A stretch of 64,000 nucleotides of DNA from a virus: positions 52,180 through 116,179 of the IMG/VR virus record IMGVR_UViG_3300025840_000015. One strand, written 5' to 3'. Position 1 is the first letter of the stretch, and every line of letters starts with the position of its first letter. Made by a program: the position numbers and the translations under genes. The notes beneath the pieces are model-generated. The model searched no databases. It was given only the letters and a program-made list of their open reading frames with translations, and had not been told where the DNA came from. Below, in pieces: positions 26,587 through 57,764 of the stretch.

Positions 26587-26670
26587 TGCGAGTAGGGAGA
26601 CTTGAACTCCCACGGGATTGCTCCCAACAGATTTTAAGTCTGGTGCGTCTACCGATTCCGCCACACTCGC
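26587..26670 (-). tRNA. trnL: tRNA-Leu(UAA), no encoded CCA
   Basis: cloverleaf GCGAGTG...CCAGA CTTAAAA TCTG, variable arm, GTTCAAG. Confidence 0.95.
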
Positions 26671-26675
26671 TTGAT

Positions 26676-26721
26676 GGTATTATGCTTTGAATGCTAATAA
26701 AAGCATTACAACCTGAATACC
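26676..26721 (-). repeat. 46-nt hairpin with an 8x8 internal loop (second copy at 57641-57686)
   Basis: GGTATT-CAGGTTGT-AATGCT-TTTATT-AGCATT-CAAAGCAT-AATACC. Confidence 0.7.
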
Positions 26722-26724
26722 AAG

Positions 26725-26808
26725 TAGGAACGGAGAGACTTGAACTCTCACGGGCAATTGCCCAACAGATTTTAAGTCTGGTGCGTCTACCGATTCCGCC
26801 ACGCTCCC
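26725..26808 (-). tRNA. trnL: tRNA-Leu(UAA), second copy
   Basis: same D and anticodon arms as copy 1; different acceptor, variable and T stems. Confidence 0.95.
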
Positions 26809-51470: not shown

Positions 51471-52397
51471 TCATTCATCTGCAAGTCGTGCAAAGTATGA
51501 AAGAGTTTCATCATCGTCATCATCATAACTAGAAGAAGAATTGCTACGAGATGGTTTGAGATCATTCAGTTCACTTCGCAAATCTTGTGTAATTTCGCGA
51601 GATGGACCACGGAAGTCTTCTTCATCTTGAACTTCTTCATCAATGTTGGGGCGTTGTTGCTTAACTCCAATAACATTATCAAAACGCTTTTTCAGTTCAT
51701 CATAAGTCTTGAACTGATCAGAGGCAACCAACTGCTCCAAAGAATATTGCTTTTTCCAGATTGCTTCCATTTCATCGTCATCATCAAGAAGTTGACCAGG
51801 ACGAGAAAACTCTGAAGAATCATAGTTGCGATAACCAGCAACATTCTTTGCTTTGAGTTTAAAATTAGCGCCTGTCCAGAAGTCAAAAGGATCAATTGCT
51901 TCCTCATCTTCAAATTCTGGTTGCATTGCTGCAGTCAGTTTATCAAAGATCTTTTTACCAAACTTATAAAGGAAAACTCGACCTTCATTATCAGGATTTG
52001 TTGGATCCTTGACAACATAAATGTTAGCAATGTAAGTCAATTTACGCTTTTGCTTACGTGCTTGTTCTTTTCCAGCATCAGTTCCATTATTCCAGAGCAT
52101 AGAGTTATATTCCGAAACTGGATCTTTTTGTCCCATGGTCGTCAAAGAGTTTTCAATATACCAACCACCAGGACCTTGGAAAGCGTGACTATAGAGTTTC
52201 ACAAAAGGAAGATCTTCATTTTCTGGTGCAGGGAGAAAACGAATTACTGCATAACCATTGCCACTTTTGTCAACTTCAAGTTTCCAGAAGCGTTCATCTG
52301 CAGATCCACTTGTATTATTCATTTTTTCAACTTCCTTGACAAGTTTTTGAGTCAAGGAACCAAGTTTGGATTGCTTTTTAAGATTTGCGAAAGACAT
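51471..52397 (-). CDS. gp32: single-stranded DNA-binding protein gp32
   Basis: DERFWK..VDKSGNGYAVIRFLPA, HAFQGPGGWYIEN, FGKKIFDK, GANFKLK, acidic tail YFARLA. Confidence 0.97.
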   Translation of the reverse strand: MSFANLKKQSKLGSLTQKLVKEVEKMNNTSGSADERFWKLEVDKSGNGYAVIRFLPAPENEDLPFVKLYSHAFQGPGGWYIENSLTTMGQKDPVSEYNSMLWNNGTDAGKEQARKQKRKLTYIANIYVVKDPTNPDNEGRVFLYKFGKKIFDKLTAAMQPEFEDEEAIDPFDFWTGANFKLKAKNVAGYRNYDSSEFSRPGQLLDDDDEMEAIWKKQYSLEQLVASDQFKTYDELKKRFDNVIGVKQQRPNIDEEVQDEEDFRGPSREITQDLRSELNDLKPSRSNSSSSYDDDDDETLSYFARLADE

Positions 52398-57041: not shown

Positions 57042-57074
57042 GAAATCTGGGTTGTTACTGAACCAGTATACCAT

Positions 57075-57100
57075 AAAAAAAGAGGGTCAGCAACCCTCTC
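57075..57100 (-). terminator. intrinsic terminator of the riboswitch operon
   Basis: AGAGGG-TTGCTGA-CCCTCT followed by a U-run. Confidence 0.75.
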
Positions 57101-57105
57101 AAAAT

Positions 57106-57225
57106 TTATTTTGTTTTGCAAAATCCTGCCATGCAGAGTTGCGCTTCTTTTAGTTTTTTCTTTTTGACTTCTTGCAATTTAATTAAAGAAAGCCAATTTG
57201 ATTGAACTTTTTGTGGTTGTGTCAT
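57106..57225 (-). CDS. 39-aa basic peptide
   Basis: manual translation MTQPQKVQSNWLSLIK...EAQLCMAGFCKTK; ATGA overlap with the upstream ORF. Confidence 0.55.
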   Translation of the reverse strand: MTQPQKVQSNWLSLIKLQEVKKKKLKEAQLCMAGFCKTK

Positions 57226-57356
57226 GATACTACCTCAACCTTCTCTTCATGCTTTACTCCTCTGTAGGTTTCTACAAAAGTTTTTAATTCATGACTTTGT
57301 TGATTTGGTCTTTTGGCGGTATCATATTTTACGCCACGATAAACGACTTGTGCCAT
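57222..57356 (-). CDS. DUF4278-like small protein
   Basis: MAQVVYRGVKYD...TYRGVKH (two YRGV motifs); AGGAG RBS. Confidence 0.8.
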   Translation of the reverse strand: MAQVVYRGVKYDTAKRPNQQSHELKTFVETYRGVKHEEKVEVVS

Positions 57357-57396
57357 TATTGACTCCTAAAGAAATGAGAATATAATTCCCGTTCCT

Positions 57397-57597
57397 TCAG
57401 TCGTTTGCGTCTTTAGTTCCTAACCTAAAACATGCTGGTTCAGTTCCTCTAATAAAAATAGAGATAAACTCTAACTTTTCATTTCGATCTAACAAAGTAG
57501 ATTCAAAAACTCCCTGTGCCAACCAATCAAAGTCATTACATGACAATAATTTTGGGTCTGGTTCTGCTGTTGCCAACAGTAAAGGTAAAAGAAACAT
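57397..57597 (-). CDS. 66-aa ORF embedded within the riboswitch
   Basis: ORF track; hydrophobic N-terminus, two Cys; stop codon lies inside the aptamer 3' strand. Confidence 0.6.
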   Translation of the reverse strand: MFLLPLLLATAEPDPKLLSCNDFDWLAQGVFESTLLDRNEKLEFISIFIRGTEPACFRLGTKDAND

Positions 57598-57640
57598 AAG
57601 ATGAACGATCCCGTTCCGCGACTTACTTGCGATCCCATAA

Positions 57641-57686
57641 AGTATTACACCTTGAATACTAATGAAAGTATTATGCTTAGAATACT
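57641..57686 (-). repeat. 46-nt hairpin with an 8x8 internal loop inserted in aptamer P2
   Basis: AGTATT-CTAAGCAT-AATACT-TTCATT-AGTATT-CAAGGTGT-AATACT. Confidence 0.7.
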
Positions 57687-57710
57687 AATTAGGGATTGAA
57701 CGACAGGTCT

Positions 57711-57739
57711 ATTATAGACCATATAAAGTATATAGTCAA
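57711..57739 (-). promoter_or_regulatory. sigma70-type promoter of the riboswitch operon
   Basis: TTGACT-N17-TATAAT. Confidence 0.8.
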
Positions 57740-57744
57740 GTTAC

Positions 57745-57764
57745 TTTGTAACATTTGATACAAA
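57745..57764. promoter_or_regulatory. putative NtcA box
   Basis: tttGTA-acatttga-TACaaa (GTA-N8-TAC with palindromic flanks). Confidence 0.65.

Follow-up and report, generated by a model that had tools for sequence, protein, structure and literature searches.

The window, that is, the whole 64,000-nt stretch of DNA analyzed here (positions 52,180 to 116,179 of IMG/VR virus record IMGVR_UViG_3300025840_000015), originates from a freshwater metagenome and belongs to a lake cyanophage. Inspection of its sequence located, between 57702 and 57389 of the minus strand, a nested doublet of glutamine-riboswitch elements in the leader of an early mini-operon of three genes. The elements of the doublet and the neighboring features are given in Table 1, in which (1) and (2) refer to the two halves. 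The promoter matches the consensus at 11 of 12 positions, its -10 element lies inside the palindrome GGTCTATAATAGACC, and its end is 4-5 nt from the apparent RNA start (~57706). An equivalent promoter is found directly upstream of CGUUCA(1) in nearly all relatives. The first gene after the doublet encodes a DUF4278-like protein with two YRGV repeats, which scored 25.1 bits against Pfam PF14105 (cut-off 25.3; E 2.4e-5) and matched phrog_5049 (E 3e-14). Its stop overlaps the start of a third small open reading frame (ORF), which is followed by an intrinsic terminator.

Table 1. Predicted elements of the leader RNA and adjoining features in the window.
Feature	Positions	Strand	Details
Promoter	57711-57739	-	-35 TTGACT 57739-57734; spacer 17 nt; -10 TATAAT 57716-57711
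Outer P1, 5′ strand CGUUC	57698-57702	-	pairs with 57390-57394; CGUUCA is 57702-57697
P2a	57632-57696	-	AUCCC 57696-57692 with GGGAU 57636-57632
Linking strand CGC(1)	57629-57631	-	last base C57629, outer long-range 'linchpin' with G57389
E-loop, 5′ strand AAGUA	57624-57628	-	half 1 only; matches the Rfam consensus CGGAAGUA
Shared P3, 5′ strand AGUCG	57619-57623	-	followed by a single C before GGAACG(1)
Inner P1′ hairpin	57602-57617	-	GGAACG 57617-57612; linchpin G 57611; loop GAU; CGUUCA 57607-57602
P2b, 5′ strand UCUU	57598-57601	-	directly 5′ of AUG; pairs with AAGA 57413-57410
Embedded 66-codon ORF	57397-57597	-	AUG 57597; stop UGA 57399-57397
P2b, 3′ strand AAGA, and linking strand CGC(2)	57407-57413	-	AAGA 57413-57410; CGC(2) 57409-57407, then AAA
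Shared P3, 3′ strand, and E-loop, 3′ strand	57396-57403	-	CGACU 57403-57399; GAA 57398-57396
Outer P1, 3′ strand GGAACG, and linchpin G	57389-57395	-	GGAACG 57395-57390; G 57389
Tail hairpin GGGAAU-UAU-AUUCUC	57376-57390	-	competes for G57390 and G57389
Shine-Dalgarno (SD) sequence and DUF4278-like gene	57222-57367	-	SD AGGAG 57367-57363; 44 codons, 57356-57222
Third small ORF and intrinsic terminator	57080-57225	-	39-codon ORF 57225-57106; terminator 57100-57080 plus U run

Most of the window was contained in six metatranscriptome runs. RNA contigs from four runs covered 57094-57706, 57072-57707, 57126-57712, and 57111-57693, with a depth of nearly zero outside. These contigs give a hint of one RNA from the promoter to the terminator, bearing in mind that RNA contigs cannot prove 5′ ends and that DNA carry-over is possible in RNA libraries. 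Other RNA contigs from the same runs share only 57387-57409 and 57611-57631 with the window and have a different 173 nt between; they are relatives with another ORF cassette.

We compared the doublet with the structural elements of the glutamine-I aptamer. In the window, CGUUC(1) can pair with GAACG(2) as P1, the AUCCC/GGGAU hairpin stands as P2 directly after CGUUCA, C57629 and G57389 can form the long-range pair, and AGUA and GAA flank P3 as the E-loop, its two strands being supplied by different halves. The loop of P2a is a 55-nt insert (57691-57637), unusually long for a glutamine-I P2. A second copy of this insert is present in the window at 26727-26670. Half 1 lacks GAA as well as a local partner for AGUCG, and half 2 lacks AGUA, so that only the composite of the two has an E-loop. 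The claim of an earlier sequence-only reading that neither half has a P3 of its own held. A local P3 hairpin as in glutamine-I was looked for and rejected; P3 is instead the long-range helix AGUCG/CGACU, whose strands are 215 nt apart, in agreement with the complementarity across about 220 nt reported in the same reading. The inner, permuted P1 (GAACG-GGAU-CGUUC) and the 66-codon ORF ending within CGACUGA were likewise found as described there. The reading had placed the whole ORF inside one loop, which is correct but can be refined: the loop is that of the second P2 stem, which itself lies inside the shared P3. The last five codons of the ORF coincide with the P2b 3′ strand, CGC(2), and P3, and its stop UGA spans the junction of P3, which supplies the U, with the E-loop strand, which supplies GA. 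The helices in the window are weak (4-5 bp), and P2b has just 4 standard pairs adjoining the junction.

Searching phage records by blastn, we found the same layout with an ORF in S-RIM50, S-H25, and WH25-B, where the homologue of the embedded ORF is annotated as a CDS (hypothetical protein), and a short form with a plain hairpin in place of the ORF in S-PM2. Pattern scans of IMG/VR yielded 79 or at least 120 contigs each and, pooled, 283 distinct doublets among the matches listed; these sequences are related and come from pattern scans, so that the counts below are not numbers of independent events. An Rfam scan of the window gave no glutamine match at gathering scores or at E values up to 10, and the halves of the doublets in these phages gave sub-threshold matches to glutamine-I and glutamine-II. 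RF01739 (glutamine-I) scored 38.4-42.9 bits on short class-A relatives (gathering score 35) and aligned them as one aptamer of 86-97 nt, in which the equivalent outer strands form P1 and the P3 loop takes up the inner core as an insertion of 39-48 nt. RF01704 (glutamine-II) scored 24-36 bits on half 1 of relatives, mostly below its threshold of 33. With R1, a covariance model built for the nested doublet, the match in the window was confined to the central 88 nt (22.4 bits); loop inserts of 55 and 183 nt are beyond its span. Chance matches dominated when bacterial and archaeal genomes were scanned with a doublet pattern of 17 bases; one of the 120 listed loci was a real glutamine tandem, and it was of the classical type (locus L479, in a SAR86 metagenome-assembled genome [MAG]).

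The comparative evidence for the shared P3 came from several directions. In an alignment of 30 short forms, 95.8% of the cells of the nested structure were paired, compared with 85.4% in shuffles, and the covariation score was 0.271 versus 0.090, a value that none of 500 shuffles reached. In P3, four of eight pairs change on both sides in this alignment. A local mini-hairpin P3 in each half had no covariation and was no better than shuffles (282/500). We then examined the segments X (between AAGUA and GGAACG in half 1) and Y (between CGCAA and GAAGG in half 2). They occur in 32 combinations, and the matched duplexes had -3.98 kcal/mol versus -2.85 ± 0.26 kcal/mol with shuffled partners (0/500). 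The classes that keep the pairing are AGUCG/CGACU, AGUCA/UGACU, GGUCG/CGACU, and GGACGGC/ACCGCCC, together with AGCCGACUC/AAGCCGACU, AGCCGACAC/AUGCCGACU, GGACGACGC/ACGCCGCCC, and AGACAACUC/AAGUUGACU. Two of them, AGUCA/UGACU and AGACAACUC/AAGUUGACU, show that P3 also covaries within the ORF-bearing subset. Covariation of AGUCG with CGACU, one of the checks put forward with the sequence-only reading, was thus observed. A scan anchored on the outer elements only (AAGUA-AGUCG...CGACU-RAAGGAACGG) detected at least 120 contigs with 30-60 nt between the P3 strands and none with a loop of 1-29 nt. Among the matches listed, 48 of 51 distinct inserts had the form C-GGAACGG-link-CGUUCA-P2-CGCRNN, which is the inner module seen in the window.

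Next, the nested topology was compared with a side-by-side arrangement, that is, two aptamers with their own P1 each and AGUCG/CGACU as a 'kissing' helix, which would make a pseudoknotted tandem. The P1 strands are invariant in the relatives and give no covariation signal; because they never vary, P1 cannot decide the topology, and the identical strands allow either pairing. The evidence on topology comes instead from P3, from the Rfam connectivity, and from two long-range contacts of one base pair each. For the linchpin pairs, the scans had fixed at most one partner and left the other free. Among the matches listed, the final base of CGN(1) is a Watson-Crick partner of the base that follows GGAACG(2) in all 283 doublets (C-G 196, G-C 87); for the final base of CGN(2) and the base that follows GGAACG(1), this is so in 262 of 283 (C-G 226, G-C 36). 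The exchange of C-G for G-C in the inner core occurs in 36 distinct sequences and several P3 classes. Under the side-by-side assignment, the same positions are Watson-Crick partners in only 168 and 163 of the 283 listed doublets, and the rest have C.C or G.G; in the classes GGCC (69) and CCGG (31), neither side-by-side pair can form. P2a covaries as well, three of its four pairs changing on both sides in the short-form alignment.

Constrained folding of short forms favored the nested structure by 2-5 kcal/mol over the side-by-side fold without a pseudoknot. For the window, the unconstrained minimum free energy (MFE) structure of a 328-nt RNA contains P2a (5/5 pairs), all five pairs of P1′, and P2b closing across the ORF, and the full nested fold, when enforced, lies 4 kcal/mol above the MFE. 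It should be mentioned that unit 1 is made first during transcription and that classical tandems of complete units exist (for example L479 of the SAR86 MAG, and the 157 doublets in PMC9481103), both of which speak for a side-by-side arrangement. Over 100 of the 283 distinct sequences, however, would be mismatched at the long-range pair in such an arrangement, and on these comparative data the side-by-side topology is disfavored; we assign it hardly any likelihood. A classical independent tandem was also considered and rejected, since neither half is complete and the side-by-side pairs fail in these same sequences. The two halves are thus not independent, as had been proposed from the sequence of the window, and the interpretation as a two-fold nested aptamer with one shared P3, the inner permuted P1 having a short loop, is strongly supported by the relatives. 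The helices other than the invariant P1 and both crosswise long-range pairs have comparative support. We conclude that this RNA architecture is real and under selection.

The embedded ORF was analyzed in the doublets with a long second P2. Among the matches listed, 134 of 135 such distinct doublets have an in-frame ORF of 49-69 codons whose start lies 3-5 nt downstream of CGUUCA(2), and in 126 it stops at the U(G/A)A joining P3 to the E-loop strand. Differences among the relatives' ORFs fall on codon positions in the order 3 > 1 > 2. In class-A relatives, the P1′ loop GAG gives an SD-like GGAG 10 nt before the AUG, which is present in 50 of 56 ORF forms versus 1 of 57 short forms, a contrast that is no true probability given the relatedness of the sequences; the P1′ loop of the window has GGAU instead. 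The embedded ORF is coding and, judged by the codon-position pattern, the open frames, and the SD-like GGAG in relatives, looks translated.

The products of these ORFs have a hydrophobic N-terminus and two cysteines in common. The window product matched phrog_13397 (E 6e-10) and no Pfam family, and all of its PHROG matches are of unknown function. A word-based homology search with the embedded protein gave two close relatives, and a search of a protein atlas gave no usable match. AlphaFold predicted a confident two-helix core (pLDDT 79; residues 20-50 above 90) and a disordered C-terminal tail, KDAND. This tail is only read-through of aptamer sequence; family members that stop earlier or lie in the first P2 do not have it. 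A fold search with the two-helix model returned uncharacterized cyanophage proteins only and nothing in the PDB. According to the model, the embedded protein would be a small helical protein with a cysteine pair.

The stems that enclose ORFs are themselves conserved as pairs. They covary (UCCC/GGGA, UCCU/AGGA, CCCC/GGGG, UCUAUG/CAUAGA, and UCUUAUG/CAUAAGA) and often take in the AUG. The second P2 around ORFs has a mean of 5.78 contiguous pairs versus 4.61 ± 0.11 in shuffles, and the first P2, which also encloses an ORF in 28 loci among the matches listed, has 5.44 versus 3.86 ± 0.29; none of 1000 shuffles was as high in either case. Whereas the family of the window ORF occupies P2b here, its members at two other loci (L018 and L032) occupy P2a. 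Similar flanks (CGUUCAUCC and GGACGCAA) border both P2 loops.

One may ask whether, in the ORF-bearing forms, the aptamer pieces are just relics or recombination joints for small-gene cassettes and form no sensor across 200 nt. The occurrence of one ORF family in both P2 loops, the similar loop flanks, the relatives' RNA contigs that share only the flanks around a different 173-nt cassette, and the 4-5-bp helices of the window would all fit such a history. Within the ORF-bearing subset alone, however, the P2 stems and P3 covary, and the crosswise long-range pairs are kept in 135 of 135 and 128 of 135 doublets (side-by-side, 81 and 82) among the matches listed. The MFE structure of the window also contains P2a, P1′, and P2b without any constraint. 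Cassette exchange and sensor function are mutually compatible, and we regard the relic interpretation as very improbable.

As for the expression platform, equivalents of the tail hairpin (GGAU/AUCC, GGGG/CCYC, and GGG/CCC) appear and covary in the consensus fold of the tails of 104 distinct relatives. The tail hairpin probably belongs to the expression platform. A search of the leader for pairings that would mask the SD sequence of the DUF4278-like gene gave nothing convincing.

From these results, the leader is most probably a single, composite riboswitch of the glutamine-I type, in which one of two ligand-binding cores is nested in the other. The outer core would be a complete canonical aptamer consisting of P1 (CGUUC(1)/GAACG(2)), P2a, CGC(1), the E-loop (AGUA/GAA), and P3, in which P3 is not a hairpin but a 5-bp helix between distant strands. 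Inside the 'loop' of this P3 would lie the inner core, which is the same aptamer in circularly permuted form. It would consist of P1′ (GAACG(1)/CGUUC(2)) capped by the 4-nt GGAU, P2b, and CGC(2), the last of these reaching the first loop base of P1′ by a long-range pair. The inner core would use the shared P3 from the opposite end, without an E-loop, and P2b would enclose the 66-codon gene, whose start codon comes after the P2b 5′ strand. Both cores may bind glutamine, and folding of the inner core would bring the P3 strands together and thereby couple the two sites.

The geometry also implies that a ribosome on the embedded ORF would have to open the shared helix, as the sequence-only reading had supposed. 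A ribosome finishing the ORF would cover P2b, CGC(2), P3, the E-loop, and the outer P1 strand, so that both cores would be opened, and the folded sensor in turn would bury the start region of the ORF. Translation of the embedded gene and the folded sensor would then be mutually exclusive. In the cyanobacterial switches tested so far, glutamine binding turns DUF4278/IF17 genes on (PMC6212724), and by analogy the folded, glutamine-bound sensor probably turns on the downstream DUF4278 (IF17-like) gene.

Ligand binding by the inner core is uncertain, as it has no E-loop and its loop is only 3-7 nt. It is conceivable that only the outer core senses glutamine and that the inner module is a structured P3 insert, such as an initiation region or regulator of the embedded gene or a folding scaffold. 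The joining strands of the inner core are just C and AAA, its short P1′ cap may hinder the long-range pair, the loop carries the SD-like GGAG in class-A ORF forms, and Rfam treats the inner module as an insertion. On the other hand, CGUUC, CGC, and GGAACGG were unchanged in the 48 of 51 inserts that the outer-anchored scan found unasked, whereas a plain hairpin would be free to vary, and the module is also kept in short forms without an ORF. The glutamine site consists of the helix of CGUUC with GGAACG, the CGN strand lying in the groove of that helix, and the long-range pair. In the solved structures of glutamine-I and glutamine-II, this 'linchpin' pair is stacked beneath the ligand (PMC6698751). 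Its covariation is known (PMC12510878), and the inner pair that exchanges C-G for G-C across several P3 classes is the very pair that adjoins the bound ligand (PMC6698751). Moreover, the E-loop and P3 are dispensable in glutamine-II, which binds its ligand without them (PMC6698751). Judged by sequence, all binding-site nucleotides known from the solved structures of both classes are present twice in the doublet. We therefore consider sensing by the outer core alone unlikely, although clearly less so than either the side-by-side tandem or the relic interpretation.

Beyond the composite riboswitch itself, we tentatively suggest a wider picture, which we hold to be possible but somewhat more doubtful than probable. 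The sensor would be built around translated genes, the two sites coupled by the shared helix would give a steep response, and the flanks would serve as cassette joints. The outputs would be reciprocal, with the cysteine-pair protein made from the open sensor at low glutamine and the IF17-like DUF4278 protein from the closed sensor at high glutamine, because the embedded gene begins within the sensor and the sensor's 3′ half forms its end.

Riboswitch aptamers are generally taken as compact, contiguous, and non-coding, and tandem glutamine switches as independent units. The comparative record assembled here points to two ligand cores interlocked via one helix, with whole genes inside aptamer loops, in a layout that recurs in hundreds of cyanophage contigs and whose ORF-bearing forms are missed by standard riboswitch scans. 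The literature searched gave no account of a glutamine riboswitch that is nested, shares its P3, or bears an ORF inside the aptamer. A survey in 2017 listed only two cyanophage glutamine aptamers (PMC5473149), and the use of riboswitches by phages may be under-counted. The doublet may offer a natural system for cooperative sensing by a nested RNA, for competition between the ribosome and ligand-dependent folding, and for the coupling by phages of small-protein output to the nitrogen status of the host.

Among known systems, the closest is glutamine-I (glnA RNA motif, RF01739), represented by the Synechocystis gifB/IF17 leader (PMC6212724) and the Synechococcus aptamer (PMC6698751). The outer core has all consensus elements in the canonical order and stands, like these, in the leader of a DUF4278/IF17-like gene. 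The outer core shows every structural feature of glutamine-I except the local P3: in the window, P3 is an open helix with the permuted core at its far end, a translated gene fills one P2 loop, and the sequence also fails the Rfam score and thus escapes detection. In classical tandem glutamine riboswitches (Weinberg 2010, PMC2864571), two sets of glutamine-site elements likewise occupy one leader. Those tandems have been treated as independent, pseudo-cooperative units (PMC2864571, PMC9481103), and 157 doublets and 4 triplets have been listed as such (PMC9481103). Their units are complete and independent, as in the SAR86 tandem, whereas both halves of the present doublet are incomplete. They have P3 and the E-loop in common, are connected crosswise by the long-range pairs, and have a single expression platform.

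Glutamine-II (Downstream-peptide motif, RF01704) resembles the inner core in having CGUUC, CGC, and GGAACGG with no E-loop or P3 of its own, and it is likewise associated with DUF4278 genes, those of picocyanobacteria. Its site, however, is closed by pseudoknot formation with a 3′ hairpin loop, whereas the inner core is a short capped hairpin leaning on P3. A glutamine-II fold was considered for the doublet and rejected, as no 3′ hairpin encloses GGAACG. The tandem glycine riboswitch is alike in principle, with two coupled ligand sites and one output, but its fold and ligand are unrelated, and its aptamers lie side by side and are joined by tertiary contacts without a shared nesting helix. Finally, group I introns with homing-endonuclease ORFs also carry a protein gene in a terminal loop on a covarying stem and face competition between translation and folding. 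Those introns are ribozymes, whereas the RNA described here would be a ligand-sensing aptamer in an mRNA leader, with an ORF that reads into the functional core nucleotides.

The small-protein family to which the ORF at 57397-57597 of the window belongs was found in the first P2 loop of the riboswitch in some phages (contigs L018:1942-2124 and L032:4544-4720) and in the second P2 in others. The first and second P2 loops have like flanks, CGUUCAUCC and GGACGCAA. Because one family occupies either loop and the loop flanks are alike, these results suggested that small-gene cassettes are exchanged, with the aptamer cores as the sites of recombination. Of four metatranscriptome runs analysed, three also contained further RNA contigs with good coverage (depth up to 81), which matched the window only at 57387-57409 and 57611-57631, that is, at pieces of the aptamer, with 173 different letters in between. 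From these common pieces and differing interiors, we infer that several related phages with differing embedded cassettes are expressed in the same waters.

The loop of P2a, the stem in the outer core, is unusually long owing to a hairpin-forming insert. A second copy of this insert, with ~70% identity, lies at 26670-26727 (minus strand) of the window, within a tRNA cluster 31 kb off. Possibly, the insert is a small hairpin element, mobile or repeated, that resides in a tolerant loop.

Features near the riboswitch, with positions in the window
Feature	Position	Strand	Basis or remark
NtcA-type box GTA-N8-TAC	57748-57761	minus	sequence motif
Perfect palindrome GGTCTATAATAGACC holding the -10 TATAAT	57706-57720	minus	sequence
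P2a loop insert, 55 nt, hairpin-forming	57637-57691	minus	sequence
Near-consensus promoter TTGACT-16-TATAAT	57359-57386	plus	sequence; inside the DUF4278 leader
Third ORF, 39 codons	57106-57225	minus	ORF list; weak PHROG match only

Upstream of the riboswitch, the NtcA-type box of the window is located 8 nt 5' of the -35 hexamer, its centre being at about -48.5 relative to the apparent start, and the same type of box was also found in the promoters of many relatives. Nitrogen input at the level of transcription may therefore be layered over the riboswitch. The palindrome around the -10 element is likewise conserved in many relatives.

Downstream, some relatives (e.g. contigs L016, L024, L074 and L118) harbor an additional module that is conserved, GAAA(AA)ACGGAUC-hairpin-AGAAGGUUAA, just 3' of GGAACGG(2), the 3' strand of the outer P1 with the linchpin G, which places it between the aptamer and the Shine-Dalgarno sequence. 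The plus-strand TTGACT-16-TATAAT could be a chance match or an antisense promoter. The start codon of the third ORF overlaps the stop of the DUF4278 gene (ATGA), and the ORF itself runs almost up to the terminator.

T4-type phages have promoter-stem-loop cassettes, to which the -10 palindrome bears a resemblance. The nested phage form contrasts with the classical side-by-side glutamine-I tandem of a SAR86 MAG contig (L479, JADHNL010000011.1), in which both units are complete, since each possesses a P3 of its own as well as the two strands of the E-loop.
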